In this document: positions 9,486 through 35,634 of the stretch, one piece after another | Position numbering within the stretch: position 1 is the stretch's first letter | Layout of the letters: the number at the start of each line of letters is the position of its first letter | From: a virus | Virus record (IMG/VR): IMGVR_UViG_3300042881_004673 | Location: 16,392-80,391 of that record | Direction: 5' to 3' (one strand) | Length of the DNA stretch: 64,000 nt | The notes under the pieces: generated by a model | Told to the model about the DNA's origin: nothing | The model's input: the letters and a program-made list of their open reading frames with translations, nothing else | Databases searched by the model: none | Program-made: the position numbers and the translations under genes

Positions 9486-10165
9486 ATAAAGAAAAAATAT
9501 TAAAATTATTTAAAAACTTTGTGGGTGAAGAGGTAAACATTTCCGGACTTCAATGTATTCCTGTTGGGGTTGGTGAATATGGTTCACATAATTCTATTAT
9601 GGGTACCGGTTGGAATCCAAACCCATATCATCAAATTCACTTTAAAATAAAAAATCCAAATAATGTCTGTTATTTTTATGCAATAATTTATGAAGAGTTA
9701 TTAGAATTATTAGAAGAATTTACCCAATATATTAGTATTAAACTAAGACCAAATATAATATGGGAGGACACACAACCAAAATTTTATCTTAACGACGAAA
9801 CAAGAAACAAAATACAAAAAGTTTTTGACTCTGTAAAAGAAATTAAATTTACAACAGGAAATTTAGATGGTGATGGCAAAGAATATGTTATTGAAATAAA
9901 TTCAATTGGTTTTAACAATAAACATTTTGATCTTGAATCATTTTATCTCCAAAACAAGGTTGTTCCAATATCTGCAACAAAAAATGGCGAAAATGTTGAT
10001 GTGAGTGAGGTTATTTACAAATATATAGATGAGTTTTTACCTAAAGTAGAAACTTACTATGAGTCAGAAGAATATTATAAAAAAATAGATGAGATAATTA
10101 CCAAACATCCACTTTTAAATGCGGATTATATTGCGACTTATTACGATACAAAGTTTATCCAATAA
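9482..10165 (+). CDS. hypothetical protein
   Basis: 227-aa ORF, ATGA overlap with the lysozyme gene. Confidence 0.7.
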   Translation: MNKEKILKLFKNFVGEEVNISGLQCIPVGVGEYGSHNSIMGTGWNPNPYHQIHFKIKNPNNVCYFYAIIYEELLELLEEFTQYISIKLRPNIIWEDTQPKFYLNDETRNKIQKVFDSVKEIKFTTGNLDGDGKEYVIEINSIGFNNKHFDLESFYLQNKVVPISATKNGENVDVSEVIYKYIDEFLPKVETYYESEEYYKKIDEIITKHPLLNADYIATYYDTKFIQ

Positions 10166-11429
10166 CTTTCTTTGATCTTTTTTGTCGGTGAAAAGTAATC
10201 ACGAATCGGTGAACTTCATTTTGAATCTCAGCCAATAAAAACCCAAACTCACTTCTTGGAATATCAAAACTTGACCCATCAATCTTGTGTATTGTTTGAG
10301 ATTGGTGTTTATCGTTTTTAGAAATGGAGATCAAATCAATAGAAGATAACAATCCAAGAGATTCAAATACTTTTTTTGCAACACCCAACTGACCTTTACC
10401 GCCATCAATAACAACAAGTGAAGGTAACTCTTGTTTCTCATTTAAAAGTCTTTTGAAACGACGATTTAATACCTCAGTAAATGATGCGTAGTCATCAGGA
10501 CCCTCAACAGTTTTGATATTGAACTTACGATAGTTTGACTTATCGGTCTTACCATTCTTGTAACGAACAAGGGCAGACACCTGACAATCACCAGCAGTGT
10601 GAGAGTTATCAAAAGCTTCAATAAGAGTTGGAACATTCAATAAACCAAATTGTTCTTTGAAAGATCTTGAAATATCACAATACTTTCTAACACGAAACGA
10701 CTCAAGTTTTTTCTCTAACAAATCAACAACATCCATTTTGTTTTTTAAGTTCTGAGAAATCTCAAACTCCATTTGTTCAGAATGATACTTCATAAACTTT
10801 CTCAAACGATTTCGAACCTTGTCAAACTGAAAGGAAAATACATCTCTCATCTCACTTACAATCTTTAAGTAAGAAAACTTCTGAATTGAGGAAACACAAG
10901 GAGCATTACAACGACCAAGATGAAATTCCAAACAAGTCTTGAACTTTTCATTTTGAATATTTTCTTCAGTCAAGTTATAAGAACAAGATCTAAGATTGAA
11001 AATGTCATGAACCATCTCATAGATCTCATAACAAGAGTTAGAACTTGTAGATTCCAAAAGAACTTCACCAGTAAAGTTAGAAGGGTTACAAACTAAAAGT
11101 CTTGGGAACTCATCCGAACTCAAAGTGATAAACCAACGACGAGATCTGTCATCTTTTGCTTTGATGTTGTATTTTGGTTTGTGTGATTTGATAAGTTCGT
11201 CTTCCAACAAAAGAGCTTGAGATTCATCATCAGTGGTCATGAACTCAACATCACGAATCTCATTTACCAAGAAAGTTGTCTTTTTATCTTTGTGGTTTTT
11301 TTGAAAGTAAGACTTAACTCGTTTAGGTAAAAACTTTGACTTACCCACATAGATAATCTGACCCTTCTCGTTTTTGAAAAGGTAACAGCCACTAGATTGG
11401 GGTATATTTGAAAGTTTCTCTGTAATCAC
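10155..11429 (-). CDS. uvrC: UvrC-like excinuclease (GIY-YIG, UVR and RNase H-like domains; no C-terminal HhH)
   Basis: GCYLF...IYVGKS..L..RVKSYF, PKYNI, IEAFDNSH, YRKFNIKTVEGPDDYAS, VIDGGKGQL, EVHRFVITFHR; start re-called to GTG 11429, 4 nt after TATATTTG. Confidence 0.9.
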   Translation of the reverse strand: MITEKLSNIPQSSGCYLFKNEKGQIIYVGKSKFLPKRVKSYFQKNHKDKKTTFLVNEIRDVEFMTTDDESQALLLEDELIKSHKPKYNIKAKDDRSRRWFITLSSDEFPRLLVCNPSNFTGEVLLESTSSNSCYEIYEMVHDIFNLRSCSYNLTEENIQNEKFKTCLEFHLGRCNAPCVSSIQKFSYLKIVSEMRDVFSFQFDKVRNRLRKFMKYHSEQMEFEISQNLKNKMDVVDLLEKKLESFRVRKYCDISRSFKEQFGLLNVPTLIEAFDNSHTAGDCQVSALVRYKNGKTDKSNYRKFNIKTVEGPDDYASFTEVLNRRFKRLLNEKQELPSLVVIDGGKGQLGVAKKVFESLGLLSSIDLISISKNDKHQSQTIHKIDGSSFDIPRSEFGFLLAEIQNEVHRFVITFHRQKRSKKVIG

Positions 11430-11508
11430 AATACAAATATAGTAATTTTTTATGGTAATTTTAAGTAAAAATTTATTAATCAATATTTATTATTAATAAA
11501 ATAGAATA

Positions 11509-12728: not shown

Positions 12729-15545
12729 ATGAAAGATCTTGTAATACAAATATTAACAGAAGAATCAAAAAAATTAATTTTTGAGTCTGGTATTAGAAAC
12801 ATAAAAGAATTATCTAAACGATATCCTAAGGCAAAAATATATTTTCATCAGGATTTGGATGGAGTGACAACTGCTTTAGGTATGAAAAACTACTTAGAAC
12901 AAAATGGAATTAAAGTGGTTGACTCTGAAATTATCCAATATGGTGATAAGGAATTTGCAATTAAAAAATTAGACGCCGAAGGTGATGTTATGCCGGTGTT
13001 AGTTGACTTTGCTCACGGTAAACCAATGTTTGTTATACATACTGACCATCACGATACGCAAGCTGGTGTAGAACAAGGAACATCAACCAATTTTAAAGCG
13101 TCAAGATCAAACGTTGAGACAATATCTCAAACCGTATCACCAAACGACATTTTTCCATCAGACGATATAACTTTAATTTCTACTGTTGATTCAGCAAACT
13201 ACGCACAATACGATATAACACCCGAAGAGGTAATGAATTATTTGTTTAAGGTAGATAAAGATCAATCATTACAAAAAAACAAAATGGTTATGGGAATGGT
13301 AACCAATAAATTATTATTAGCATTTAAAAACAAACCAAAATTTTTAGAAAATATCGTAATGAATGCAAATCCATCACTATTAAGTATTTTAATGTATATT
13401 AAATCTCAAATTAAAGATAGTGGATATGCTGATGTGGACACATTAGAAAAAAATAAAGAGATGTATGTCCAATCAATGAAGATAAATAAGAATGTTAAAG
13501 TTGATGATGGGATAATAGTTCAATATGGTGGAGGTAGTATGATGAAACCAGGATCATATGATAGATACACACCATTCAGAAATAATCCTGACGCTGACTT
13601 CTTGGTGATTGCTTGGCCCTTAGGGTTGGTACAAGCGTCTTGTAATCCATTTAAGAAAGAAAGAGCACTTAAAGGTGTGAACTTAGGTGAAATTAAAGAT
13701 GAGGTCTTAAACAAGTGGAAATCACAATTACAAAATAAAGACATTCCTTTGTCCACAATTAAATGGATATCTGAATCAGGAAAAAGTTTTAATGAAGAAT
13801 CTGTTGGTTTTACATTTAAAGACTTTAATGCTTTGTATGGAAAAGAATTTAAAAGAATGGATAATGGTGAAAAAATATTAAATGATATTGATGTTGTAAT
13901 GAAAAAACCATTTAGTGAATTGACACAAAACGAAATGAAAATGTTGGACTCAATTAGTGTAAACGCTTGGGATTTAATTAAATCAAATAGTGGTGGACAT
14001 AAATGTATTACCAATATTTCAGGATTGTCTTATTTAGGTAGATCTAAACGACCACCTGAAGGTAAATATAAATATAATTCTGAATCTGATGACTCTCCAT
14101 ATGTTAAATTTACTAAAATGATACAAAATGAATTTGCAAGAATTCTTAAAGAAAAAATTAAAGAAACTAATAATGTTAATGAAAATTACAACTTAATTAG
14201 AAAAAAAGATTTAATTCCAAATCAGATTAATTACAAAAATATAAAAAAAATGTTAATAAAAGAAGAAACATTTGGGGCTACTTGGAAATCACCAATACCA
14301 GGAGATGCTGATTTACTTCATGCGTTTGAAAGACGAAAATCTGACAAACAAGGGGCTCTTATTGGAACCCAAATTGAGGAGAAACTAAAAAAACTTTATG
14401 ATGATGGAATTAACCCTGACATAACTGATTTAAAGTTAAATGTAGATTCTAAAAACTCTACGGTAACGTGGAGCGCAACTATTGGTCCTAGTACTGATGG
14501 TAAAGCATACATGGGAATTTCAACAAGAGGATCTACTGGTGGTAGTTCAGAAAAACGAGCTTTAGATCAAGTAGGTCCTTTAAAACAACAATTAAGTTCA
14601 AAAGGATATCAAGACATAACACCAATCACTTTTGACGGAAAAGACCATTTTGTAAATCCATCTGGTAATAAAATTCACCAATACTTTTTCAAATATACAG
14701 ACCCAAATAAATATCCACCTCACCCAACTAAAGATGGTTTAAATGTTGATAACACTAATACATCTTTAACAACAAACTCATCAGAAAATGATTTATTTGG
14801 TATAAAAGGTATTTTATCCAAAATTAAAGAAAAATTATTCAAAAACAAAACAAACACAAAAAGTAGTGATACAACAAGCAATAATACAACAAGTGGTGAC
14901 ACAACAAGTAATAATACAACCACCACAGATTCCGATTTTAAAACAATAACAAAAAAAGTAATTGCAAATTTTGAAGGAGGATATTGGAATCCATTTTGCC
15001 CGCACCCAACTAGCCGTATGGGTAAATCAACTGAGACTATGTTTGGTTTGGATAGGTATAATGGTAATATTGAAAGCACTGATAAAGGAAAAGAATTTTT
15101 TAAGATTATAGACGATGAAAAAATCGCAGCTGGAGCCACATCTAGTGGTGAAGGTAAAAACATGAAATGGACAAACATGGGTAACTTTTGTAAAAAATGG
15201 AAATGGTTATATAGAGGTGGAGATAAAAAAGAAAAATTAGAAGATCTTGCAACTGAAATTATGGAAAAATACTTTAATAAAAACATGAGTAGTTATATTA
15301 AAGACTCTAAGACCAAAGAAAAAATTATGGGAAATAAAGGATTATTAGTGCATATGTCATACGCAAGTTGGAATGGTCCCGGATTCTTTCAAAAATTCGG
15401 AAGAAAATTAGAAGCCGCGGTAAAAGACGGAAAATCCGACAAAGAATTAATTGATGTTGCCTGTCAATCAAGATTAGACACTGGATTAAACCAAAGTAAA
15501 GTAATAGAGGCCATTAAAAATCCTGATGGGATGAAAACGGCTTAA
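12729..15545 (+). CDS. polyprotein: DHH/DHHA1 phosphoesterase + unknown domain + C-terminal lysozyme-like (GH108-like) domain
   Basis: FHQDLDG, VDFA, HTDHH, SGGH; junctions NVNE and LIKEE; C-terminal NFEGGYWN...ETMFGLD...SWNGPG. Confidence 0.65.
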   Translation: MKDLVIQILTEESKKLIFESGIRNIKELSKRYPKAKIYFHQDLDGVTTALGMKNYLEQNGIKVVDSEIIQYGDKEFAIKKLDAEGDVMPVLVDFAHGKPMFVIHTDHHDTQAGVEQGTSTNFKASRSNVETISQTVSPNDIFPSDDITLISTVDSANYAQYDITPEEVMNYLFKVDKDQSLQKNKMVMGMVTNKLLLAFKNKPKFLENIVMNANPSLLSILMYIKSQIKDSGYADVDTLEKNKEMYVQSMKINKNVKVDDGIIVQYGGGSMMKPGSYDRYTPFRNNPDADFLVIAWPLGLVQASCNPFKKERALKGVNLGEIKDEVLNKWKSQLQNKDIPLSTIKWISESGKSFNEESVGFTFKDFNALYGKEFKRMDNGEKILNDIDVVMKKPFSELTQNEMKMLDSISVNAWDLIKSNSGGHKCITNISGLSYLGRSKRPPEGKYKYNSESDDSPYVKFTKMIQNEFARILKEKIKETNNVNENYNLIRKKDLIPNQINYKNIKKMLIKEETFGATWKSPIPGDADLLHAFERRKSDKQGALIGTQIEEKLKKLYDDGINPDITDLKLNVDSKNSTVTWSATIGPSTDGKAYMGISTRGSTGGSSEKRALDQVGPLKQQLSSKGYQDITPITFDGKDHFVNPSGNKIHQYFFKYTDPNKYPPHPTKDGLNVDNTNTSLTTNSSENDLFGIKGILSKIKEKLFKNKTNTKSSDTTSNNTTSGDTTSNNTTTTDSDFKTITKKVIANFEGGYWNPFCPHPTSRMGKSTETMFGLDRYNGNIESTDKGKEFFKIIDDEKIAAGATSSGEGKNMKWTNMGNFCKKWKWLYRGGDKKEKLEDLATEIMEKYFNKNMSSYIKDSKTKEKIMGNKGLLVHMSYASWNGPGFFQKFGRKLEAAVKDGKSDKELIDVACQSRLDTGLNQSKVIEAIKNPDGMKTA

Positions 15546-19936: not shown

Positions 19937-20370
19937 TGAAAGAGTTAATTAGACACATATTAAAAGAAGAAGAAAATGAAAACCTAAAAGAAAGGTTTGT
20001 TAGATCCGCCCAATCCATTCCTTATATTATCCAAAGTAATGTAGATTCAAATCTTTTTACAGAAATTGAAATTGGAAGTATTAATTATAATAACAATCAT
20101 AACAGCATTGATGGTGAATTGTTAATAACATCTTGGTGTGATGATCCTGACCTTTTTTCGTTTACAAACCAACTGAAATTAGTTGATAAAGAATTGGACA
20201 CAGTTTTACTTAATTATTCATTTACAAGTAACGGTTCTTTTGGGAAAAAGAAAGGTAAATATAATAACTTGATGTGTTGGTTTATTGGTTGTGAATGGAG
20301 TGCTGAAGGTGATTATACAATGAAGATGAAATACCATTTTACGCAAGAAGAATATGATGATGGTGAATAA
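19936..20370 (+). CDS. leader-tagged hypothetical protein
   Basis: MKELIRHILKEE; TAATG coupling. Confidence 0.8.
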   Translation: MKELIRHILKEEENENLKERFVRSAQSIPYIIQSNVDSNLFTEIEIGSINYNNNHNSIDGELLITSWCDDPDLFSFTNQLKLVDKELDTVLLNYSFTSNGSFGKKKGKYNNLMCWFIGCEWSAEGDYTMKMKYHFTQEEYDDGE

Positions 20371-23300
20371 AGATTTAATTAGACATATCTTAAAAGAGGA
20401 AACTCGTGACACCAAATCAAAACTAATTAAACAAATTGAAGATGAGGGGTTGTATTCTATTGCTGAATTAGTTGGGGGATTAGACAACCTAAAGAAGATA
20501 CTAAAAGATAACCCCGAAATGGTTGAAAGAATTGAAAACCAAAAAGGGTTAGTTAAAGTGTCTTGGACAACGGATGGAGACGATCCATCAATTGATTTGC
20601 CATTTAAAATTATTGGTGCAGGGTGGAATATATGGATGACTAATAGTTGGCCAATAGTTAATATTATTTATAATGAAAATAAATTAACTAAAGATGAGAA
20701 TTATAAATTTAAAGATTTTTTATATGATTCTTTTAATGATGAAAGTTCGGTAAGAGTTCTTAAACTTAATAGTGATGAACCTAGAATGCATAAAACCTAT
20801 GTTCAGTTAGGGGAAATAAATGGGAAAACTGCACAAAAAAATACAACCGATTTAAGTCGCAGTTATGATCTGTCTGATATTCGGGAAATAGTAGAAACGT
20901 TAGGATATGATAATATTATTAAAGAGGAGGTAGATAACACTAAAGAAATTCAAAAAAATTTAAGAACAATTAAGATATTGTTATCTCAAATTAGTTGGGA
21001 AGGACTTTGTGATATATGGGTAGAATATAATCCTGTTGATAAGGATTATGAAATCAGATCCAAGTCAATAAAAAGACATTTTGATCATGACGAAATTGTT
21101 AATGAATTAAATTTTGTGGAAGAATCAATAAAAGCTATGGGTCTCAGACCTTATGTATTTTCACCATGGCATGTTGATAATTGTGAGGATGAGGTTGAGT
21201 TTATGAACGAAAGTATAGATAAAAGTGATGAGAAAAGAAACAAGATCATAGAAAAAATTATGGACAACATTATTTTTCCTGAATATAAACATATCATTTG
21301 TGGTTATGATGTAAAAAATGATGAGGTTTTTAATGAACCTGTAGTTAATGTTACTTTTATTGGTGGGTATGGAACAAAACTTTGGCCTACCACACAAGGA
21401 ATTCAAAAAATGTATAGTGATGTTTTAGATGAAATTTGGAATACTATTTACGATTACATTAATATTCCAGTTGGCGTTACTATGGAAACAACGCCCAAAT
21501 GTGATGAACAAGAAAACATTTATCTTAGAGAATCAATTGGCAAATCTGAAAATAATAAACTTAAGTTGGTTAAAGATATTATATATACCATGTTTGATAA
21601 TATTATAGATTTAGAATACATCGCCAAAAGAAATGAGATTATGGTTTACTATGATACACAAGAAGAGTTAGAGAGTTCAGAAATATGTGATACTATAAAT
21701 GATTATACCAATTTAAATGTTGTTCCTTGGTATGACTACAAGAAACGAACAGAATTAAAAAAGGACCCTGATTTTTACATAGATACTGAAAGATATGAGG
21801 AAGAACTTAATGAAAATTATAGCCCTGCTGGTAAAGAAATAATTCCAAACGAAATTGTTATACATAAATCTAATCCTAAGTTCAGAGACAAGATTATAGA
21901 ACAAGGATTAAAAGTTCGTGCTGGTGAATGTTATAAAATATATGCAGGATATGGAACAAAATGTAAACCTGCAATATTTGCAACCAACTCAACAAATAAG
22001 AGATCGTGGTTTGATTCTACTTATGATGATGATGTTTGGGAAATTGATACAACAATGATGCCCGAAATCAAATGGTATAAGGATAGACACTACGAATCAA
22101 GTAAAAAACATATAGTAACCTTTCAAGACATACCTAAAGAGGCAATCAAACTTATCTATGAAGGTTCAGGTAAAGATGGGGGAATAATGGAATCAGTTGA
22201 CAAATCTGAAGACAAAAAACTTAAGTTGGTTACAAAAATGATTCATGAGTTTTTTGATGATGTTAGTTTTATTGATATTAAAAAATATGAAAATAAACCA
22301 ATGATAAGAGTTTATTTTGATAACGATGAATATGCTGGTAATGAAGAGACTTATTTTGCTGAACAAATACAAGATAAAATATATGAATATACAGGTATTA
22401 AACTTATTCCGTATTGGCACAATATTCAGTATAACACTGATGCAGATTTTCGTTTAGATGCCATTAAACTAAAATACGATAATGAAGGAAATGTTATAAA
22501 TGAATCTGAAGAAAAACAACCAAAGTATGTTAATATAATTAAAAATCTTATAGAACCATTTAAAGAAGAAGAAGATTGTGTTTGCGAAATTAGAGTAACA
22601 TCCGAAGACGATTTTTATATTATTTATTTGGTATTTGGAACGGAAGAACTAAATGATAAATTTTCTAGTTTTCTTCAAAGAGCTGAATATACAATAAATT
22701 TAAGAAATGATGTTAAAAACACAATTAAAGATTATTTGCCAATAGATAATATATATGTTGGATCCATATCAAAACCAAATTGCGAATGGAAACCCATGAA
22801 TGAATCTACATTCTTTCTTAGAAGGGTTGATACGAGTTTAATGGAAAAAGAGTTCTTTGAGAATTTAAATATTATTACCGATGTTTATTTAGATAAATAT
22901 AATAATGGTGTGGGTTTTAATTTTGAAACCTTTGAAGATCATGCCATAAATTATTTTATAGATAATTATTACAATGATTTAACTAATTACGGAGAAAATG
23001 ATTACCCGTATGATGAGATTTATAAATTCCTTTCAAATCATTTTCATAATAAGATTAAAGATAAATACGACACTTTTTTTGGTCGTAATATAAATGAATC
23101 AGAAAATAAAAAACAATCCTTATTAAAGACAATAGAAAAGGAAGGGTTATATAATTTTATAGAAATGTCTGGATTAGACATTAGTCAAATTAGTTCGGTT
23201 TTAAAAAACATGGATAACCCTAAAGAAGTATTAAAACAATATATCAGGGATTTTGTTTTAAAACATGGTAATAAATGGGGAGATAATAGTGGAACACTTA

Positions 23301-23527
23301 GTGGATATGAAATCCAATTAAGTGATAACAAATATGTTGACGATATAACGGTTCAAGACAGCGACCAAATTGCTGTTGAGATATTGGAATTTGATCAAGA
23401 CGAGTATGGACATACTGAACAAAACGACCAATACATAACAACTATTAACAACCTAACTAATGATGAGTTATTAACTATTATTTCTTGGATGATGGAAACA
23501 ATTAAAAATGGTGATTGGAATAGATAA
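20354..23527 (+). CDS. leader-tagged polyprotein of about 9 modules, one ADP-ribosyltransferase-like
   Basis: KDLIRHILKEE leader; junctions IKEE, MNES, LRES, LNE, IMES, INES, MNES, INES; exact start uncertain (20354-20363). Confidence 0.75.
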   Translation: MMMVNKDLIRHILKEETRDTKSKLIKQIEDEGLYSIAELVGGLDNLKKILKDNPEMVERIENQKGLVKVSWTTDGDDPSIDLPFKIIGAGWNIWMTNSWPIVNIIYNENKLTKDENYKFKDFLYDSFNDESSVRVLKLNSDEPRMHKTYVQLGEINGKTAQKNTTDLSRSYDLSDIREIVETLGYDNIIKEEVDNTKEIQKNLRTIKILLSQISWEGLCDIWVEYNPVDKDYEIRSKSIKRHFDHDEIVNELNFVEESIKAMGLRPYVFSPWHVDNCEDEVEFMNESIDKSDEKRNKIIEKIMDNIIFPEYKHIICGYDVKNDEVFNEPVVNVTFIGGYGTKLWPTTQGIQKMYSDVLDEIWNTIYDYINIPVGVTMETTPKCDEQENIYLRESIGKSENNKLKLVKDIIYTMFDNIIDLEYIAKRNEIMVYYDTQEELESSEICDTINDYTNLNVVPWYDYKKRTELKKDPDFYIDTERYEEELNENYSPAGKEIIPNEIVIHKSNPKFRDKIIEQGLKVRAGECYKIYAGYGTKCKPAIFATNSTNKRSWFDSTYDDDVWEIDTTMMPEIKWYKDRHYESSKKHIVTFQDIPKEAIKLIYEGSGKDGGIMESVDKSEDKKLKLVTKMIHEFFDDVSFIDIKKYENKPMIRVYFDNDEYAGNEETYFAEQIQDKIYEYTGIKLIPYWHNIQYNTDADFRLDAIKLKYDNEGNVINESEEKQPKYVNIIKNLIEPFKEEEDCVCEIRVTSEDDFYIIYLVFGTEELNDKFSSFLQRAEYTINLRNDVKNTIKDYLPIDNIYVGSISKPNCEWKPMNESTFFLRRVDTSLMEKEFFENLNIITDVYLDKYNNGVGFNFETFEDHAINYFIDNYYNDLTNYGENDYPYDEIYKFLSNHFHNKIKDKYDTFFGRNINESENKKQSLLKTIEKEGLYNFIEMSGLDISQISSVLKNMDNPKEVLKQYIRDFVLKHGNKWGDNSGTLSGYEIQLSDNKYVDDITVQDSDQIAVEILEFDQDEYGHTEQNDQYITTINNLTNDELLTIISWMMETIKNGDWNR

Positions 23528-24211: not shown

Positions 24212-25129
24212 ATGAAAATAAAATCAATCAATGTTATCAATGGAAAAAACAAATGGAGTGAGTCCAAAGATAAGCTTATTCATATGATTTTAGATTTGGG
24301 TGAATTTGAAGAAAAACCATCAGATAAAATAGAAGGATTTTACGAAAGAATAAAAGAATATTTACCATCATTAAAAAGTCACAGATGTTCTGAAGGAAAA
24401 CCAGGAGGGTTTCTTAAAAGAATTAAAGATGGAACATGGATGGGACACATTATAGAACATGTGGCATTGGAATTACAAACACTTGCCGGAATGAATACAG
24501 GATGGGGAAGAACAAGAGGAGTTAAAGGACAAAAAGGAGTGTATAATGTTGTGTTTAATTATGAAAACAAAGACAGTGGAAAACTAGCCGCAAGAGAAGC
24601 ATTTAATGTTGTGAATGATATTATAAATGATATAGATCCAAAAATAGATAGAATAGTTAAAAAATTAAAACCAAAAAACTTAAAAGAATCCATAAGAAGA
24701 ATATTAAGGGAAGAAACCAACATTAAACCCATTCTAAACAATTTACTTAATATGTTGTTTGATGGATTTGATGATATCTATTATGATTGGGCTCAATATA
24801 ATTGTGGAATGGGTGTTTGTTGTGACCCATATGCTGTTGGGTTTGTTCTTCCAAAAAATAATTATGATGATTATTTATTCAAATTGGTTGATGGTAATAA
24901 CTATGACGATAATGGTAAATACTTTAAAGAAGTAATGGGTGAGTTACCTGAAGTATGTTATGAAATGCCTGATGTTAAAAACCCAAACTTTAATTTTATA
25001 ATATTTTACGAAGTGTTTGCCGAAGAAATTGAGGATTACTTGGGACGTAAAGGTAATTGGAAAATTGAGTTACTAGCTTTAATAAATGAAAAGTTTGGTT
25101 GTAAGGCCACTAATATAATGTTTATATGA
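24212..25129 (+). CDS. cyanophycin synthetase N-terminal domain fused to an internal leader and an unknown domain
   Basis: LDLGEFEEKPSDKIEGFYER...LPSL.SHRCS.G..GGFL.R...GTWMGHIIEHVALELQTLAG..TG.GRTR; internal NLKESIRRILREE at 24677. Confidence 0.85.
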   Translation: MKIKSINVINGKNKWSESKDKLIHMILDLGEFEEKPSDKIEGFYERIKEYLPSLKSHRCSEGKPGGFLKRIKDGTWMGHIIEHVALELQTLAGMNTGWGRTRGVKGQKGVYNVVFNYENKDSGKLAAREAFNVVNDIINDIDPKIDRIVKKLKPKNLKESIRRILREETNIKPILNNLLNMLFDGFDDIYYDWAQYNCGMGVCCDPYAVGFVLPKNNYDDYLFKLVDGNNYDDNGKYFKEVMGELPEVCYEMPDVKNPNFNFIIFYEVFAEEIEDYLGRKGNWKIELLALINEKFGCKATNIMFI

Positions 25130-25755: not shown

Positions 25756-26277
25756 ATGAACCTACAAGAAAACATACAAAGGATTAGATCAATGATGGGG
25801 GTTATATCTGAAAAGTTAGAAGATATACAAGGAACACCATTATATCATAAAACCTCAACTGAAACTGGAATTAAAATAATAAATTCGGATTCTCTTATCG
25901 GAACCAAACCTTCTGATGAATATCTTAATATAGATAAAAGATTGGCTGACACAGAAAAACAAAGTGCGATATCACTCACAAGAGAAAAAAATTGGAAGCC
26001 CGATCAATCAATAGGTAAAGGGTCAGGTGAAAGTATTTCAAATGATGACATGGTATTTGTTCTTGATAAATCAAGATTAGAAACAAAGTATGAAGTAGAA
26101 CCATTTAATTATTATGGTTTAGACCCTAACGATACTGGAACAAGTAAAGGTGGTGAGTTTGAGGAAAGAGTATTAACCAATAGAATTCATCCACTTCATA
26201 GGTATCTTGTTGATATAATATACAAAGGAAGTGATCCTGAAATACAAGTAATAATTAATGATTATTTAAATAGATGA
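25756..26277 (+). CDS. leader + putative ADP-ribosyltransferase-fold domain
   Basis: MNLQENIQRIRSMMGVISE; LYHKTS...AISLTR...VFVLD...EFEERV pattern. Confidence 0.55.
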   Translation: MNLQENIQRIRSMMGVISEKLEDIQGTPLYHKTSTETGIKIINSDSLIGTKPSDEYLNIDKRLADTEKQSAISLTREKNWKPDQSIGKGSGESISNDDMVFVLDKSRLETKYEVEPFNYYGLDPNDTGTSKGGEFEERVLTNRIHPLHRYLVDIIYKGSDPEIQVIINDYLNR

Positions 26278-26603
26278 ACCTACAAGAGAACATAAGAAGA
26301 ATATTAAGGGAAGAGTCGGGACTTAGTCCAAGGTTCCTTAGAAGAGTTCCTATGGATAAGTTAGAGGAGTCTTTTGGTCACGCATTAAAACTAGCAACAA
26401 AAAAATATTATAGATATCGACCTATATTAAATGACGATTACAAATTACATTTTTTTACAAAGGAAGTTGTGGAATTATTATTAGATTCAGTATCACATTT
26501 AATGTATCCAACAATAAAAGGGTCGTGGTATGATGAAGAGTTTTCAAATGTAAAAAAACATTTCAAAGATAGAATAACAGAATGGTGGGAAACCTTAGAT
26601 TAA
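26274..26603 (+). CDS. leader-tagged hypothetical protein
   Basis: MNLQENIRRILREES then FLRRV module. Confidence 0.75.
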   Translation: MNLQENIRRILREESGLSPRFLRRVPMDKLEESFGHALKLATKKYYRYRPILNDDYKLHFFTKEVVELLLDSVSHLMYPTIKGSWYDEEFSNVKKHFKDRITEWWETLD

Positions 26604-28433: not shown

Positions 28434-29153
28434 ATGAAAAGAATTATAAGATTAACTGAATCAGATCTAACAAGGATTGTTAAACGTATAATAATGGAGG
28501 AGCAATGTTCTGCACCACCTCAATGGTTAATGAATTATCAACTCGACGGTAAATTAGGAAAGGGTGAATGTTCTAATTGGGAATGGAGAAAAGACACATA
28601 TACTTTTTTATTTATAAATCCTAAAGTTAAGATATTAATATTGAGTATTAATCCGAATGAGATTGAAGAGGATCAATTAAACGAACTTAAACAAATATTT
28701 GGTGAACCCAAAATTACGGAAAAATATTACACATTTAAATATACTTTCTCAAACCAAGAAGATGGTGGGGATTTAAATCAAACACTTGATAAATTACAAG
28801 GAAAGGTTCCATGGATCGCATCCCTTAACGAGTCTGACATAAGACGTATATTGGAAAACGCCTTCACTAAAATGAGAAGAAGGGATGGTGAACCTATTGT
28901 AAGAAAAACGGATTTAGTAAAAGGTGTTATACATGATTTATCTATGAAAATGTCCAAAGAATATGGTTTGGATGAATATGAGGGTGATGATAACATTCCT
29001 GAGTATCTAATGCCTTATCTTGATGAAATCTCTGAAGTTGTATCTAATATTGATACAATGTTAATTTGGGATGCTGTTTATGAATCCCTCGATACCCCCG
29101 AAATAAATGATCTAATTGATAAAATTGTTGATGAATATGGCGAAGATAATTAA
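28434..29153 (+). CDS. leader-tagged two-module protein
   Basis: MKRIIRLTESDLTRIVKRIIMEE; internal second leader LNESDIRRILE. Confidence 0.8.
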   Translation: MKRIIRLTESDLTRIVKRIIMEEQCSAPPQWLMNYQLDGKLGKGECSNWEWRKDTYTFLFINPKVKILILSINPNEIEEDQLNELKQIFGEPKITEKYYTFKYTFSNQEDGGDLNQTLDKLQGKVPWIASLNESDIRRILENAFTKMRRRDGEPIVRKTDLVKGVIHDLSMKMSKEYGLDEYEGDDNIPEYLMPYLDEISEVVSNIDTMLIWDAVYESLDTPEINDLIDKIVDEYGEDN

Positions 29154-29159
29154 TATGAT

Positions 29160-29189
29160 CCCCATTCTCTAATACAGGTGGGGTTTTTT
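29160..29189 (+). terminator. CCCCA...TGGGG family terminator
   Basis: CCCCATTCTCTAATACAGGTGGGG + T-run; related to 31398 and 33552. Confidence 0.75.
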
Positions 29190-29259
29190 GTTTTATGTAA
29201 AACGACCCCCCTCTTTCTTATGTTTACATTATTAACTAATATCATTAACGTTTAACTAT

Positions 29260-29412
29260 ATGAGAAATCTTGGAATCATATTATCTGCATTGGTAACCAT
29301 TATTTTGGTTATATATTATGTGAACCCATTTATCATATATCTTATTGGATGTTATCAGGTTGGAGTATGGATTGGGGACGCCATGATTAAGTTGATTGAA
29401 AAAGATGATTGA
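29260..29412 (+). CDS. small membrane protein (50 aa); not in the ORF track
   Basis: MRNLGIILSALVTIILVIYYVNPFIIYLIGCYQVGVWIGDAMIKLIEKDD*. Confidence 0.55.
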   Translation: MRNLGIILSALVTIILVIYYVNPFIIYLIGCYQVGVWIGDAMIKLIEKDD

Positions 29413-29469
29413 TAAAAATAATATCCCTATTATGAGGTGATGGTATATTTATTAATAAAAGAAAATATT

Positions 29470-29835
29470 ATGTCAAAAATTATAAGATTAACGGAAAGAG
29501 ATTTATCTCGTATTGTTAGACAAACGATTATGGAGATGGAATCCTCTAGTGAATTTACAAACCATACTGGTTCTCCTACTAAGGTATCTATAATCAAGTT
29601 TAATAAAAAAATGGATTATGACGGGGCTTTGTCCATGTTGAAAACATATGGATCAACATATCGTTTTCCAAACAATTGGGGTAGTATAAAAGACACATTT
29701 AATAGTGGGGAGTATTGGGATAGTACTACACATGGGACATACAACATATCATATTACAATATGAAAGATAAACAATTACATCATGGGCATAGACTGCATA
29801 AAAAATATTTAATATTAGTTAAAAAAAATAAATAA
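29470..29835 (+). CDS. leader-tagged hypothetical protein
   Basis: Start re-called to MSKIIRLTERDLSRIVRQTIME. Confidence 0.8.
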   Translation: MSKIIRLTERDLSRIVRQTIMEMESSSEFTNHTGSPTKVSIIKFNKKMDYDGALSMLKTYGSTYRFPNNWGSIKDTFNSGEYWDSTTHGTYNISYYNMKDKQLHHGHRLHKKYLILVKKNK

Positions 29836-29860
29836 TTTTAATTATTAAACAAAATTAATT

Positions 29861-30208
29861 ATGAAAAGAATTATAAGATTAACGGAAAGAGATTTAACAA
29901 GAATTGTTAGAAGAGTTATAAAAGAAAATGCTGATAAAACAAACATCTATTATAGGAGATGTGAGGGTGGTTACGGTTTAATTGAACCCGAAAGTTTTGA
30001 GTTTTTACCTGGTGATGATAAATTTATAAAATTCCTTAGAAAACCTGATCCTAATTTTGATAATGGAAATAGTAAAAGTATTGGTAAGTGTCTTGCTTAT
30101 GAAGAACCAATGGAAGGGTTATGTTTTGATATAATTGTTGAAGAAGGTGAAGGTGGTAGAAAAATTGCTTATAGTGGAATTGATTGTGAGACAAGGGAAA
30201 GATGGTAG
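29861..30208 (+). CDS. leader-tagged hypothetical protein
   Basis: MKRIIRLTERDLTRIVRRVIKE. Confidence 0.8.
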   Translation: MKRIIRLTERDLTRIVRRVIKENADKTNIYYRRCEGGYGLIEPESFEFLPGDDKFIKFLRKPDPNFDNGNSKSIGKCLAYEEPMEGLCFDIIVEEGEGGRKIAYSGIDCETRERW

Positions 30209-30270
30209 TGTTTTTTAACAACTGATATATTTTAAGAGTGGGGTTTTTTATTTCCTTATATTTATCATAT

Positions 30271-30687
30271 ATGAAAGTAGTCATAACTAAATCACAATAT
30301 CAGAAAATCGTATTTAATTTATTGGATGTCTTGTATGGTCCCAATATTTCATTTAAAAAAGATGAGAATTCAGATGTATTTGAGATTTTATCAGATGATG
30401 ATGTAGAAATTTTTAGAGTTTATACAAAAGAGGGAAGATCTAAAGGATGTAAAAGAGATTTGTTAGTTCTTTCTAATACAATGGAGGACATTCAATCGTA
30501 TGTGCCACCATCGGTATTAAGAAAAAAATTATTTGCTAAAACTGTTATTTCTTATGTTAATGAAAAAACGGATCTTGATGTTGATTGTATTGATTTTGCG
30601 TATGAAATATATGATAATGATGAAACTTATTTCGAAAAAAAATATAGATTTAACGTTAAAAAAAATAAAAAAACTCACAATCGATAG
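30271..30687 (+). CDS. hypothetical protein, paralog of 37271..37711
   Basis: Start re-called to MKVVITKSQY; shared NLLD.LYGP, KGCK.DL, RKKLF.KTVISYVNEKT.LD.DCIDF. Confidence 0.8.
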   Translation: MKVVITKSQYQKIVFNLLDVLYGPNISFKKDENSDVFEILSDDDVEIFRVYTKEGRSKGCKRDLLVLSNTMEDIQSYVPPSVLRKKLFAKTVISYVNEKTDLDVDCIDFAYEIYDNDETYFEKKYRFNVKKNKKTHNR

Positions 30688-30742
30688 GTTTTTTTATTTT
30701 TTTTTTTGAACATAGAAGTATTTATAAATAAATTAAAATATT

Positions 30743-31387
30743 ATGGGAAGAATTATAAGATTAACGGAAAGAGATTTAACAAGAATTGTTAGAAGAGTTA
30801 TTAGAGAGGAACAAACAAATGTTAATGATGATTATTATTTTATTGACGAAAAAAGTATTTATGAACCACAATATGGGTATGGTGGTGGTAATGCGTTCCA
30901 AACTGTAAGAGGAACAGAAGTTTGGTTGAATAATGCCGCTCAGACATCATGGCCTGCGGGTGATGCGGTTAAAACAAAAAAGGCGGCACAAAAACTTATA
31001 AAAGCTTTATCAGGATTAGATATTAGCGGAAGTGGTGCCAAGTTGGCTCAAGAAGTTGCAACCGAATGGAAAACATACGGTTTGATTGATCAAAATGAAT
31101 TTTTAAGGCAGTGGGATGTGTTAGCAGCAAAACAAGGAGAATATTTCAACCTTAGTGGCGGGAACATGTTTAAATGGATGTCACCTTGGGAAGAATTGTT
31201 TGATGATAATGAGCATGATATTGCAAGTCAAATGATTGATCATAGTATAGCAAGAGTTAAAACTTACTGTCAACCTTATGCGGATCAAAAAACTAAAGCC
31301 GCAAGAGGTGTTGGAACATATTCTAAAAATGTAATTTGTGATTTGTTTGTAACTAATGATCTAAGAAGTCCTATGTTTAAAGACTAA
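30743..31387 (+). CDS. leader-tagged hypothetical protein
   Basis: MGRIIRLTERDLTRIVRRVIREE. Confidence 0.8.
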   Translation: MGRIIRLTERDLTRIVRRVIREEQTNVNDDYYFIDEKSIYEPQYGYGGGNAFQTVRGTEVWLNNAAQTSWPAGDAVKTKKAAQKLIKALSGLDISGSGAKLAQEVATEWKTYGLIDQNEFLRQWDVLAAKQGEYFNLSGGNMFKWMSPWEELFDDNEHDIASQMIDHSIARVKTYCQPYADQKTKAARGVGTYSKNVICDLFVTNDLRSPMFKD

Positions 31388-31397
31388 TAAAATTTAT

Positions 31398-31430
31398 AAC
31401 CCCATTTTCTAATAAGAGTGGGGTTTTTTT
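31398..31430 (+). terminator. CCCCA...TGGGG family terminator
   Basis: AACCCCATTTT...GAGTGGGGTT + T-run. Confidence 0.75.
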
Positions 31431-31572
31431 ATGATATAAAATTCTTCCTTTCTTATTGGGCGCCGGAACCCCGTCCCGACTTCGTCGGTTTTTTTTATCT
31501 TATTTATAATTTACTTAAGTGGGTATTTCAGAAAAGGTGTCGGTTTTTTTGTTTATACCATATTTATTATAT

Positions 31573-32142
31573 ATGAAAAAAATTATAAGATTAACAGAAA
31601 ATGATTTGTATAGAATTGTTCGACAAGTTATTAGTGAAGAAGAAGTTTCTTATAATGTATTAAACAAATACTTAATATCTAAACCAGAGTTAATACCGTT
31701 ATATCAAGAGATTGAAAAAGTTCTTGGTGATAAATTTACTGAAAAACATTTTACCGATGAAATCAAATATTCGGGAGGATTAAAAGAACTAAGTGGAAAA
31801 CTTTTACCAAAAACTATTAATTCTTTTAATTTGTTAAAAAGCAAATTTCCTAATATAACCTATTCAGATAAAAGTTATCGTACTTATAAACTTCAAAAAG
31901 ATATGTTTTTAGATAGCGCTAAATCACACGGAAATACTATTTCAGGTGGGCTAATTCAAGCGGCTTTACCTGGATTTAGTCAACACCACACAGGAAAATC
32001 TTTAGACCTTGCTAATTATAAAAAAAATGGAGTTTCACAATTAACACCTGAAATATTACAAAAATATAATTTTTCACTTCCATACCAATATAAAACATCA
32101 TTCAGAATGGCAGAACCTTGGCACATATATTTAAATAACTAA
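31573..32142 (+). CDS. leader + M15B (VanY-like) D-Ala-D-Ala carboxypeptidase
   Basis: MKKIIRLTENDLYRIVRQVISEE; SYRTY..Q, AALPGFSQHHTGKSLD, EPWH. Confidence 0.85.
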   Translation: MKKIIRLTENDLYRIVRQVISEEEVSYNVLNKYLISKPELIPLYQEIEKVLGDKFTEKHFTDEIKYSGGLKELSGKLLPKTINSFNLLKSKFPNITYSDKSYRTYKLQKDMFLDSAKSHGNTISGGLIQAALPGFSQHHTGKSLDLANYKKNGVSQLTPEILQKYNFSLPYQYKTSFRMAEPWHIYLNN

Positions 32143-32185
32143 TTTTTTTTGAATATATAAGTATTTATAAATAAATTAAAATATT

Positions 32186-32719
32186 ATGGGAAGAATTATA
32201 AGATTAACAGAAAGAGATTTGACTCGCATCGTTAGAAGAGTTATTAGAGAAAATGAAGAAGAGTGGATTGACCAATCACAAGATATGGATGATGAATCAG
32301 ACTTTTCAAAAATGGAACTAGAACAAAGTAGTAAAGAGGCGACAGAACAATTGAGTCCTGAAGAGCAAGATATGTTACGTGATTTTATAGAAAGTAACGG
32401 TATTGAATCTTTACAATCAATAGTTAAAGATTCTTTGGAGTCTGTATTGACGGAAGAGGATGAAAATGAAATGGGTGATAATGAATACGAAATAAGAAGT
32501 ATCATTGATAAAATTATTGGTTATAGTTCAATTGGTGCTGTATTAGCGATTGTTCCGGCAGCAATGTTTATAAGTGCGGGAATTGCTGCGGCTTTAGGTG
32601 TTTATGCTTTAGCAAGTAATACTCTTAGAGATTCCGCTTGGTTTAAAAGAAAAGGTTATGATAAATACCAAACAGGACACCATTACGGAAAATCCGATAA
32701 AAGTAGAAACAACAGATAA
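32186..32719 (+). CDS. leader-tagged protein with acidic region and TM segment(s)
   Basis: MGRIIRLTERDLTRIVRRVIRE; DDESDFSKM similar to DNESDYSEM in 44092; hydrophobic IGAVLAIVPAAMFISAGIAAALGVYAL. Confidence 0.8.
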   Translation: MGRIIRLTERDLTRIVRRVIRENEEEWIDQSQDMDDESDFSKMELEQSSKEATEQLSPEEQDMLRDFIESNGIESLQSIVKDSLESVLTEEDENEMGDNEYEIRSIIDKIIGYSSIGAVLAIVPAAMFISAGIAAALGVYALASNTLRDSAWFKRKGYDKYQTGHHYGKSDKSRNNR

Positions 32720-32721
32720 TA

Positions 32722-33216
32722 ATGAAAAGAATTATAAGATTAACCGAATCAGATTTAACAAGACTTGTTAAAAAAACTATTATGGAACTTGATAGGTCAA
32801 CTTATGATAGAGCTGCTGATGTTGCAGGTGAAAAAGGATATAATAAATTGTCTGATAGATTTCGTGAATACGGAAAAGAATTTGGTTTAAATCAAGAAAG
32901 AGATAATATCGTAATGGTTGTAGATCGTGGAGGTGAAGACCAAGTTTTAAACGTTAGAATTAATGATCTAAAAAGTGATTCTAACTATTCTATGAGTTTT
33001 ACTTTGGAAACAGAAGAACTTGATAAAGGAACTAAAAGAAAGTTTGAATTAAACAAATATTCGGATAACATAGAATTTTATCTGAATGGTCAATTTCCAT
33101 CTTTGCCACAGACAAGGAAAGATGCAAAAAAAGTTTTAAGGTTGTTTGAAAACAATGGAGTTGATGTAAGTAAAATTGACCCAAGATCAATATCATATGA
33201 TGACAGTGGATTTTAA
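32722..33216 (+). CDS. leader-tagged hypothetical protein
   Basis: MKRIIRLTESDLTRLVKKTIME. Confidence 0.8.
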   Translation: MKRIIRLTESDLTRLVKKTIMELDRSTYDRAADVAGEKGYNKLSDRFREYGKEFGLNQERDNIVMVVDRGGEDQVLNVRINDLKSDSNYSMSFTLETEELDKGTKRKFELNKYSDNIEFYLNGQFPSLPQTRKDAKKVLRLFENNGVDVSKIDPRSISYDDSGF

Positions 33217-33240
33217 ATGATAAACTAAAGAAATAAAGAT

Positions 33241-33528
33241 ATGAAAAGAATTATAAGATTAACTGAATCAGATTTAACAAGATTAGTTAAACAAGTTATT
33301 AGTGAAAACTACGAAAACTCATTATACTCAGATATTATGGAACTAATAAAAAATTCTAACTCAAGTCATGAAGAAACCATTAGTGTTTTAAATTCTATTG
33401 TTGATGAAATGTCTTCTTCAAGGAGATTAAGACGAGATGTAGAAAAAAGATTTCGTGATGATAATGAAATCACAAGTAATGATCCACGATATCTTTACGA
33501 CATGGGACGTGGAGTATCAGGTCATTAA
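33241..33528 (+). CDS. leader-tagged hypothetical protein
   Basis: MKRIIRLTESDLTRLVKQVISE. Confidence 0.8.
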   Translation: MKRIIRLTESDLTRLVKQVISENYENSLYSDIMELIKNSNSSHEETISVLNSIVDEMSSSRRLRRDVEKRFRDDNEITSNDPRYLYDMGRGVSGH

Positions 33529-33551
33529 AAATTAATAAATAAAATTTTTAT

Positions 33552-33585
33552 AAAACCCCATTCTCTAACAAGAGTGGGGTTTTTT
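33552..33585 (+). terminator. CCCCA...TGGGG family terminator
   Basis: AAAACCCCATTCT...AGAGTGGGGTTTT. Confidence 0.8.
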
Positions 33586-33634
33586 GTTTCACTTATTTAA
33601 ATGTTGGGGTATATTTAAAATTATATATTATTCT

Positions 33635-34033
33635 ATGGTTAGAAAAGACATTTATAAAATTGACATACAAGATGGTTTATATTTTTTAGTATTTCATAAA
33701 ACATTTAATGGTGGGTTTGGATCCGCAGTATCTTTATATGTGAATGAATTCGAATATTTAAAATTTGATTGTTTTGGGGAGAATGAAGGTCATTATCATA
33801 TTTATGATGAAATAACAAATGAGATCATATATTTTATTGAAAAAACATGTGAAGAACAAATAACTCGTACTTCATATGAATTAATTAATAATATTGACAC
33901 ATATTTAAATAAAAGTAAAAATGTGGATATAAAAAATTTTAAAATAAATCACAAAGATTTTATAGAAAAAATAGATGATGTAAAAAATAAAATGTTAGAA
34001 TATGAATATAATTTTTATTCTACTTTAAGATAA
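33635..34033 (+). CDS. hypothetical protein
   Basis: Start re-called to MVRKDIYK; LKFDCFG..GHYH motif. Confidence 0.65.
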   Translation: MVRKDIYKIDIQDGLYFLVFHKTFNGGFGSAVSLYVNEFEYLKFDCFGENEGHYHIYDEITNEIIYFIEKTCEEQITRTSYELINNIDTYLNKSKNVDIKNFKINHKDFIEKIDDVKNKMLEYEYNFYSTLR

Positions 34034-34044
34034 AATATAAAACA

Positions 34045-34698
34045 ATGACACCACACCATTTATCAGAAAAATTTTACACCTCGATTAATTTGGTGGTAAA
34101 TAAGACACAGCCAAAAAAAATACTATTTTTAGCAAAAGTCTTTTGTGAAGAATGGTTATTACCTAATATGTTAACGTATTCAGATGATGTTCATATTGAT
34201 TATATTCTAATACAAGAAGATGAGGTTATTGGTCTTGAGTGTGAAATTAAAGATGGAATGAAATATAATTTTCCACATAACTATGTTTCATTTGATGAGT
34301 TTAAAAACTTTTTATTTTTGGATTCTTATGATTTTATTATAATGGATACGGTTCATTATAAGGACTATATGGATTACATTTTTAAAAACATAATTCCTTT
34401 GTGTGACGGTTATGTTTTATTACATGATACATTACCACAAAGTGAGGGATCTTTGACAATACCTCGTAGATCTGATACTAGTCCTTGGGTTGGTCAAACA
34501 TATATTTCATTTCATAATTTTTATTTGGGAAATAAGAATATATCATATAATTTTGATGATGGTTATGTTGGTTATGGTTTAATTGATTGTTCTAAAAATA
34601 ATATTAATGTTGATTATGATGACACAATAATTTGGGGACTAGATCAAATTAAACTTAGTTCCATCCCTCACGAACAATTTAATAATGTTATAATGTAA
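34045..34698 (+). CDS. class I SAM-methyltransferase-like protein (Methyltransf_24-like)
   Basis: YDFIIMDTVH...GYVLLHDT.P; N-terminal glycine motif not evident. Confidence 0.5.
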   Translation: MTPHHLSEKFYTSINLVVNKTQPKKILFLAKVFCEEWLLPNMLTYSDDVHIDYILIQEDEVIGLECEIKDGMKYNFPHNYVSFDEFKNFLFLDSYDFIIMDTVHYKDYMDYIFKNIIPLCDGYVLLHDTLPQSEGSLTIPRRSDTSPWVGQTYISFHNFYLGNKNISYNFDDGYVGYGLIDCSKNNINVDYDDTIIWGLDQIKLSSIPHEQFNNVIM

Positions 34699-34773
34699 AA
34701 AAAAATAAATAATTAATAATAAAAGTGAGATTTTTTGCAACATCAACATATTTATTAATAAATTAAAACAAAT

Positions 34774-35310
34774 AAATTAAAACATTATGGGAAAAATAGT
34801 AAGATTAACTGAATCAGATTTAGTTAGAATTGTAAAAAGAGTAATTAATGAAGGTCTGAGTACAGCACTTATGGCACCATTAACTGTTGGTGGTAAAACA
34901 TATCAAGTGCAACTTTTTGGTAGAGATACGGTTGCTTTTGTTAGTAAAAATGATGTAAACACTGAGATTAAAGACAGAGATCTAATTGGAAAACTTAATA
35001 CGGCGGCCGGATTTGCTTATGAAGCAATTCCAACATCAACCGGAACAGCGTCAGTTGGGTATATTAAAAATCACTGTTCTAAATACGGTAATCTTTGTAG
35101 TAAATTACCATAATGGTAGTTGGGTTTACCAAAGATCTTTATAATTAAAATAATATTTAAAATCCCCACATTAAAATTAAGATTGTTGGGTTTTTTTAAA
35201 ACATAAACATATTTATTAAAAAATTAAAAAATTAAAACATTATGGGAAAAATAGTAAGATTAACTGAATCAGATTTAGTTAGAATTGTAAAAAGAGTAAT
35301 TAATGAAGGT
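34774..35310 (+). repeat. 82-bp perfect direct repeat (34774-34855 and 35229-35310) covering 5' UTR and leader
   Basis: AAATTAAAACATTATGGGAAAAATAG...AATTAATGAAGGT is identical; identity stops one codon after the leader Glu. Confidence 0.9.
34787..35113 (+). CDS. leader-tagged hypothetical protein
   Basis: MGKIVRLTESDLVRIVKRVINE. Confidence 0.8.
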   Translation: MGKIVRLTESDLVRIVKRVINEGLSTALMAPLTVGGKTYQVQLFGRDTVAFVSKNDVNTEIKDRDLIGKLNTAAGFAYEAIPTSTGTASVGYIKNHCSKYGNLCSKLP

Positions 35311-35538: not shown

Positions 35539-35577
35539 GTTCTTGGAGACACAGTATAAAGGTACATAAAAGTAACT

Positions 35578-35611
35578 AAACCCCATCTTTTAATTAAGTT
35601 TGGGGTTTTTT
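35578..35611 (+). terminator. intrinsic terminator
   Basis: AAACCCCA/TGGGGTTT + T-run. Confidence 0.7.
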
Positions 35612-35634
35612 GTTTTCCATTATATTTATCATAT

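Follow-up and report, generated by a model that had tools for sequence, protein, structure and literature searches.

In bacteriophage T4, the prohead protease gp21 cuts after glutamate at L/I-x-E sites, where an aspartate in the last position blocks processing, and the first 10 residues of the internal protein IPIII form a capsid-targeting sequence that is cut off (PMC9026906). The T-even internal proteins are a diverse set with only this targeting sequence in common (PMC3012670), and Alt, a packaged ADP-ribosyltransferase (ART), is cut at ITE-6 and LTE-619 (PMC5694885). Phages also encode multi-domain 'polyvalent' proteins, whose delivery along with the DNA has been predicted (Iyer et al. 2017, PMC5512222). 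Here, we describe an open reading frame (ORF) at 20354-23527 in a 64,000-nt window, the whole stretch of viral DNA analysed, which spans positions 16,392-80,391 of the record IMGVR_UViG_3300042881_004673; coordinates below are window positions. The ORF encodes a chain of nine independently folding, exchangeable modules (M1 to M9) behind a leader common to many neighbouring genes. The modules are joined by flexible linkers with a Glu-specific hydrophobic-x-Glu motif, and the leader ends in a like motif. With moderate confidence, we read the protein as a cargo precursor that a large T4-like phage would target to its capsid and cut at each joint with the head protease, a reading that draws, for packaging and cleavage, on a related genome (G003) and on the T4 precedent.

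The relation to T4 is one of mechanism only, as whole-protein Pfam and PHROG scans, together with tblastn against 50,697 phage records, returned no homology to IPI, IPII, IPIII or Alt. Like these proteins, the ORF carries a short N-terminal tag ending in L/I-x-Glu that is placed on otherwise unrelated, fast-evolving proteins; an ART is among the cargo of T4 (Alt) and, by its predicted fold, among the candidate cargo here (M5), and G003 encodes both a protease of the gp21 family and a capsid protein of the gp23 family. The T4 protease cuts after Glu, and Glu is the residue that the joints of the ORF carry at the candidate P1 position, at which cutting would take place. In T4, each cargo is a separate gene with its own tag, whereas in the ORF up to nine modules share one tag, with the motif at every joint, and the preferred motif is longer, [ILM]-N-E-S. 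A further parallel is offered by the inner-body and ejection proteins of the giant phages phiKZ, 201phi2-1 and SPN3US: these form a large set of head-internal paralogues, and each propeptide has several three-residue sites that are cut after Glu. The phiKZ-group protease gp175/gp245 (MEROPS S80) is distantly homologous to T4 gp21 and cuts at S/A-x-Glu, so that P3 is small (S/A/G), in contrast to the hydrophobic P3 that the ORF shares with T4. Cleavage in that group takes off propeptides, whereas no chain of different folded domains is separated by it, and the group is a different phage lineage from that of the ORF. A conceptual likeness, without evolutionary relation, is seen with the polyproteins of picornavirus-like RNA viruses, in which a single viral protease processes one translation product at short conserved inter-domain sequences, yielding equal numbers of each product; the ORF, unlike these, is an accessory cargo gene of a double-stranded DNA (dsDNA) phage, outside its set of replication and structural genes, and its module order is not fixed.

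The tag on the ORF is one of four conserved leaders, MK.LIRHILKEE (type A), MNLQENIRRILREE, MKRIIRLTESDLTRIVKRVI.E and MKIIITE.Q, each with an [ILV]xE sequence, and at least 28 of 116 ORFs start with one of them. The type-A leader heads six genes in the record, among which the ORF is the fifth and the last of a consecutive run (18520, 19161, 19613, 19936 and 20354). The count of at least 28 leader-tagged ORFs in the 80-kb record (80,391 bp, CheckV completeness 28%) compares with about 36 in the 292-kb G003, and in relatives the leader precedes many different modules.

The first-pass annotation of this DNA, made from the letters alone, had described a polyprotein of modules separated by recurring x-E linkers, and this layout was upheld on closer analysis. 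The open frame of 1057 aa was confirmed, and all eight junctions lie within 3 nt of where they had been located (IIKEE 20915, MNES 21203, YLRES 21521, LNE 21806, IMES 22184, VINES 22493, PMNES 22793 and INES 23090); only the module size, given as about 100-190 aa, had to be corrected, to 94-177 aa. The resemblance reported between modules was also recovered, with z=14.6 for M4 vs M6, z=5.5 for M3 vs M6 and z=5.6 for M1 vs M9 by Smith-Waterman alignment with shuffling, the only procedure with which the paralogy surfaced, self-BLASTP of the ORF protein having found no internal repeats. Likewise, the proposed match of M8 to a stand-alone gene at 26274-26603 was reproduced as a 90-aa alignment at 22% identity (pairwise E=6e-5); this gene is leader-tagged and homologous to M8 over the whole length of the module.

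We modelled the whole protein with AlphaFold2, using an alignment of 56 mostly co-linear relatives. The alignments were shallow at M2, M3, M4 and M8, where MAFFT misplaced single-module relatives; of these four, only M8, for which next to no alignment was available, stands out with clearly lower confidence, and confidence is also lower for M1. The model has a mean predicted local distance difference test score (pLDDT) of 74.5 and a predicted template modelling score (pTM) of 0.36, and the combination of high pLDDT with low pTM indicates confident domains without a fixed mutual arrangement, like beads on a string. Segments with pLDDT <50 make up 15% of the chain (residues 1-4, 92-98, 125-194, 280-289, 385-394, 483-491, 525-536, 608-616, 716-722, 813-825, 879-883 and 911-916), and all eight joint Glu residues fall within them (chance about 3e-7, a rough figure in which the sites are treated as independent). 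Of the 29 [ILMV]xE sites in the protein, three others lie in the low-pLDDT tail of M1 and 18 lie outside low-pLDDT segments, all of these inside modules except ILKE15 of the leader. The predicted domain boundaries thus coincide with the xE sites, and with every joint Glu in a low-pLDDT segment, no predicted domain spans a joint. In the model, M2, M3, M4, M6 and M7 have a common alpha-beta-beta-alpha-beta core, with an extra helix or strand in some, M8 consists mainly of three long helices, and M1 and M9 are helical with beta structure; the nine modules represent four or more distinct folds, in an order that varies from relative to relative. The M1-M2 linker (aa 125-194, 20726-20935) is unusually long, with about 70 residues at pLDDT <50 and four [ILMV]xE sites, and has no single [ILM]NES joint; the redundant multi-site propeptides of giant phages resemble it.

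With Glu as P1, the candidate scissile bonds are ILKE15/E at the leader end, followed by IKEE192/V, MNE286/S, LRE393/S, LNE487/N, IME613/S, INE717/S, MNE817/S and INE915/S. The extended motif [ILMV][NRMY]ES occurs six times against 0.25 expected, a count reached in none of 5000 shuffles (0/5000), and every occurrence is at a module boundary. Its codons vary among the joints (ATG/ATA/CTT, AAC/AAT/AGA and TCA/TCT/AGT), and the sole DNA repeat in the ORF, 76 nt at 76% identity, covers the starts of M4 and M6, beginning exactly at the Glu codon. Since the joint codons vary and the DNA repeat is limited to these two module starts, conservation is at the level of the protein, on which selection acts. 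A long exact DNA repeat acting at the joints as a pure recombination handle was rejected on the same two observations.

A phmmer search of 1.84 billion representative proteins returned 545 relatives, 126 of them with E <1e-30, and the relative clusters that were looked up consist solely of unnamed or hypothetical metagenome proteins. In the best 150 of the 545, onto which the modules were mapped, each of M1 to M9 aligns end to end, and order, number and combination vary, the breaks falling exactly at the xE sites; the 147 internal joints represent 39 distinct ordered neighbour pairs. The sequence [ILMVF]xE[SNDTEA] is present at 141 of the 147 joints, and the stricter [ILMVF][NRMYKQT]ES at 115, compared with 2 matches in 26,881 module-interior residues. 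Within these 115 motif-bearing joints, P3 is Leu in 53, Ile in 45 and Met in 17, and P2 is Asn in 84. The form [ILMVF]xES occurs 119 times at joints and [ILMVF]xDS not once (0), as against 14 and 40 in the interiors, where the Asp form is about three times commoner; in these sequences, therefore, the candidate P1 residue at joints is Glu and essentially never Asp. The module interiors are also low in hydrophobic-x-Glu relative to the Asp form (normalised ratio 0.42, vs 0.88-0.96 in three G003 gene sets), a depletion that we do not use as support because the interior set consists of homologous, non-independent sequences. The same module can follow either kind of site: in relatives, M5 is preceded by ...ILREE, ...ILRED or ...ELNEN and M6 by ...VLRES or ...GLMES, which indicates that leader ends and internal joints are interchangeable. 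In G003, the modules of the ORF are split over three leader-tagged genes, as M1-M1, M4-M5-M3 and M6-M7-M9.

The whole-protein Pfam and PHROG scans gave noise only, and a function was suggested for one module. The first-pass annotation had advised searching each module separately, and this yielded a fold for M5; the others, covered by the whole-protein family scan and one whole-model fold search, gave none. Folded alone, M5 reached a pLDDT of 82 and matched the NAD-binding C-lobe of Tpt1 (Foldseek E=2.7e-4); it superimposes on KptA residues 83-180 (VIA Z=10.2, root-mean-square deviation (rmsd) 2.2 Å over 89 aa), with ART toxins next at Z 5-7. As modelled, M5 has the ADP-ribosyltransferase fold. 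Residues H504, S506 and R511 are invariant in the M5 family, and H504-K-S506, a candidate NAD-binding H-x-S/T motif, is present in 30 of 30 members. We rejected M5 as a Tpt1/KptA orthologue, as only the C-terminal lobe (about 83-180) aligns and the 126-aa, joint-bounded module leaves the N-terminal RNA-binding lobe of that two-lobed enzyme unmatched. With the whole model as query, Foldseek matched YscD/PrgH periplasmic ring-building domains weakly and in tandem (E=5.5e-4, rmsd 15 Å), and ribosomal protein chains and KH-domain proteins weakly as well; given this weakness, no function is inferred from likeness to type III secretion ring-building, ribosomal or KH proteins.

The candidate protease comes from G003, a relative of 291,867 bp that is 99% complete. 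Its alignment with the record gave 43 matches covering >60% of the query, at a median identity of 62% and in some cases 85-97%. G003 encodes a 236-aa Peptidase_S77 protein of the gp21 family (88.5 bits vs a cut-off of 27; E=2.6e-16 to the T4 gp21 structure 5JBL) at G003:C1 154,799-155,509 on the minus strand, within a compact head gene cluster of T4 type (Table 1). The N-terminal 60 residues of its capsid protein, which precede the region alignable to mature T4 gp23, contain LLE6, IKE23, IKE44, LYE51 and INE60/A, and an ungapped projection of the T4 maturation point onto this protein falls at IKE44/N. The 242-aa protein encoded between the portal and protease genes contains [IL]NES twice. Immediately beyond the capsid gene, the next gene encodes a 239-aa protein with a type-A-leader-like N-terminus, ...IKNILKE, and a C-terminus with ...TQNES.... 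Across G003, leader-tagged proteins contain [ILMV]NE[SA] six times as often as expected (6 vs 1.05); elsewhere, the motif lies mostly in the first 70 residues.

Table 1 Layout of the ORF (window positions) and head gene cluster of the near-complete relative (G003 positions).
Feature	Position	Strand	Description
Whole ORF	20354-23527	+	Open; 1057 aa, 124.8 kDa, isoelectric point (pI) 4.7; leader and nine modules
Type-A leader, aa 1-15	20354-20398	+	Ends I-L-K-E15; putative propeptide for capsid targeting, with an [IL]-x-E site of its own
M1, aa 16-192	20399-20929	+	Helical and beta; M9 paralogue; ends I-K-E-E192
M2, aa 193-286	20930-21211	+	Alpha-beta-beta-alpha-beta; ends F-M-N-E286
M3, aa 287-393	21212-21532	+	Alpha-beta-beta-alpha-beta; ends Y-L-R-E393
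M4, aa 394-487	21533-21814	+	M6 paralogue; ends E-L-N-E487
M5, aa 488-613	21815-22192	+	ADP-ribosyltransferase fold (model); ends G-I-M-E613
M6, aa 614-717	22193-22504	+	Alpha-beta-beta-alpha-beta; ends V-I-N-E717
M7, aa 718-817	22505-22804	+	Alpha-beta-beta-alpha-beta; ends P-M-N-E817
M8, aa 818-915	22805-23098	+	Mainly helical; ends N-I-N-E915
M9, aa 916-1057	23099-23524	+	Helical and beta; M1 paralogue; C-terminal module
G003 head cluster	within G003:C1 146000-162000	-	In order: large terminase, portal, 242-aa protein of unknown role, Peptidase_S77, acidic scaffold-like protein, gp23-family capsid (213 bits)

As a cargo precursor, the protein would work as follows. The leader, like the T4 capsid-targeting sequence, would bring the entire chain into the prohead's scaffolding core, where a gp21-family prohead protease, cutting after Glu in L/I-x-E, would remove the leader and cut every joint. 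Nine proteins of 11-20 kDa would thereby be freed in equal numbers inside the head, from which they would leave alongside the DNA when the phage infects, to act on the host, and M5 would be an NAD-using enzyme of the ADP-ribosyltransferase type among this cargo, as Alt is in T4. That one leader packages the cargo and a Glu-specific protease separates it had been the central proposal of the first-pass annotation; the module boundaries, the shuffling, the Glu-only P1 and the S77 peptidase of a relative all speak for it, while entry into the prohead, the cutting itself and a protease of the phage's own are steps that we infer.

Several observations weigh against this scheme. The loose motif [ILMV]xE is not enriched in the ORF (29 observed vs 25.4 expected), so the argument rests on the extended motif and its position. 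Several relatives retain a whole leader copy inside the chain, and some joints could therefore be scars of gene fusion. The link to a protease runs through G003, which shares 66 of 115 ORFs with the record of the window; in that record, a 28%-complete fragment, no protease, capsid or portal gene was recognised, and tblastn against the 50,697 phage records found no cultured relative. Finally, eight of the nine modules are acidic (pI 4.4-4.8), M5 at 7.9 being the only exception, whereas the T4 internal proteins are basic according to the literature.

The main rival, which we consider unlikely but deserving of serious weight, is that the product remains an uncut, polyvalent 125-kDa protein from which at most the leader is removed, the joint motif being a linker, a helix cap or a recombination boundary. 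Phage polyvalent proteins with 2-15 domains are well documented, some of them delivered unprocessed (PMC5512222), and, like the ORF, they combine several unrelated effector-type domains in one polypeptide, with ART domains recurrent and the order highly variable. Moreover, a helix begins soon after each joint of the ORF, so that the Ser-Glu/Asp-rich starts could be helix caps, and the M4/M6 repeat that starts at the Glu codon is compatible with recombination at module starts. An uncut protein, however, leaves unexplained why Glu occupies P1 at 141 of 147 joints and Asp essentially never does, while Asp is commoner in like context inside the modules, or why a hydrophobic P3 is kept whatever modules flank the joint. 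It also does not account for the like motif at leader ends and in the region upstream of the gp23-like capsid core of G003, and the variable joint codons likewise speak against it. Classical polyvalent proteins draw on a known set of domains (MuF, a zincin-like peptidase, ParB, methylases, helicases and others) and, if processed at all, are thought to be cut by a peptidase domain of their own, unlike the ORF, the joints of which look like sites for a separate head-maturation protease; at E<=1, neither a Pfam family of this set nor a peptidase domain of its own was found in the ORF, which has only the ART fold in common with the described repertoire.

Less probable still, and in our judgement improbable, is that the ORF encodes a non-virion protein, a fused array of paralogues acting in the infected cell, with leaders and joints serving as a regulatory or translation-start element or as a helix for cytoplasmic localisation or assembly. 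Packaging is, after all, a proposal, and no recognised structural gene lies near the ORF in the record. Against this idea stand the leader-type N-terminus (IKNILKE) encoded directly after the G003 capsid gene, the extended motif in both the G003 capsid protein and the 242-aa protein of its head cluster, and the match of 10-20-residue leaders ending in [IL]xE with the T4 capsid-targeting sequences of the literature; the ART-fold module and a leader-tagged VanY-domain neighbour (below) also fit injected proteins. That the joints are N-x-S glycosylation sequons or internal translation starts is very improbable and was rejected: N-E-S is formally a sequon, with Asn at P2 in 84 of the 115 motif-bearing joints and several GT2 genes in the window, and ATG occurs in the joints at 21203, 22184 and 22793 (Met at P3), but about a quarter of these joints have R, M, K, Q or Y in place of Asn, leader ends have no Asn and Glu is constant, and with Leu (53) and Ile (45) prevailing over Met (17) at P3, a start codon is not the conserved feature.

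Other genes of the window carry leaders as well. A dense run of small genes at 28434-44652 (+) bears the leaders MKRIIRLTE[SR]DLTRIVKRVI.E or MKIIITE.Q, and its gene at 28434-29153 has an internal leader-like SLNESDIRRILEN at aa 131. Within this interval, a 189-aa protein (31573-32142, +) with the leader MKKIIRLTENDL... contains a VanY D-Ala-D-Ala carboxypeptidase domain (E=3.2e-10) and could, judging by this domain match, be an injected cell-wall enzyme. The product of 24212-25129 (+) has a cyanophycin-synthetase-like N-terminal domain (PF18921, E=1.7e-44), then a complete internal leader copy, NLKESIRRILREE, at aa 157 and then another domain, an arrangement that looks like a fusion retaining the whole leader. 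The 938-aa protein at 12729-15545 (+), with the type-A-like leader MKDLVIQILTEE, shows by eye DHH phosphoesterase motifs (DHH near aa 106) and a C-terminal FEGGYW like that of GH108 lysozymes; it has no Pfam match at E<=0.001 and no [ILM]xES joints, and from these motifs it may be a second multi-domain cargo protein. Elsewhere, two large paralogues of 932 and 719 aa at 2087-7119 (+), with common N- and C-terminal sequences and in a region of raised guanine-cytosine (GC) content (35-37%), are flanked by GT2 glycosyltransferase-like genes and have as their sole match PHROG 15511, of unknown function. A UvrC-like gene with GIY-YIG and UvrC RNase H endonuclease domains lies on the minus strand at 10155-11483, in a region that is otherwise plus-strand.

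The host of the phage is probably a member of the Bacteroidota. The record has a GC content of about 29% with nearly all genes on one strand, and the window contains a cluster of five tRNA genes at 59020-60645 (+; Arg-TCT, Ile-GAT, Met-CAT, Glu-TTC and Asp-GTC), as well as an 818-aa protein (45714-48170, +) with a signal-peptide-like start, an SprB repeat, a PKD-like domain and a CHU_C type IX secretion C-terminal domain. Taken together with the closest cultured capsid relatives of near-complete kin, which are those of Flavobacterium phages at 40% identity, these features point to a Bacteroidota phage.

Since leader ends and joints carry the same motif, genes can fuse or split there without losing targeting or processing, and such fusion and splitting would explain the free shuffling of modules among relatives. 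We therefore put forward, tentatively, that the head-protease site does double duty, as a processing signal and as the universal, context-free point where modules and leaders are swapped, joined or separated, giving a combinatorial cassette system for injected effectors. Were this so, any number of cargo domains could be loaded on one tag at fixed 1:1 ratios, and phages would possess an equivalent of polymorphic toxin systems and a naturally occurring, multi-cargo form of the packaging vector engineered around the T4 capsid-targeting sequence.

We found no description of a head-protease-processed cargo polyprotein of a tailed phage in the searchable literature, which leaves most subscription journals outside its coverage. 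If the joints are cut as proposed, a dsDNA phage would make its injected proteins, rather than the products of its core genes, by a polyprotein strategy, in which one tag and one protease load many small effectors equally and the motif makes the modules freely exchangeable. The head-internal 'first-strike' repertoire, a handful of proteins in T4, would then number dozens per genome, and new families of small domains, in their hundreds, would become candidate effectors of host takeover or anti-defence. The arrangement would also provide a natural template for loading more than one foreign protein at a time into T4-type capsids.

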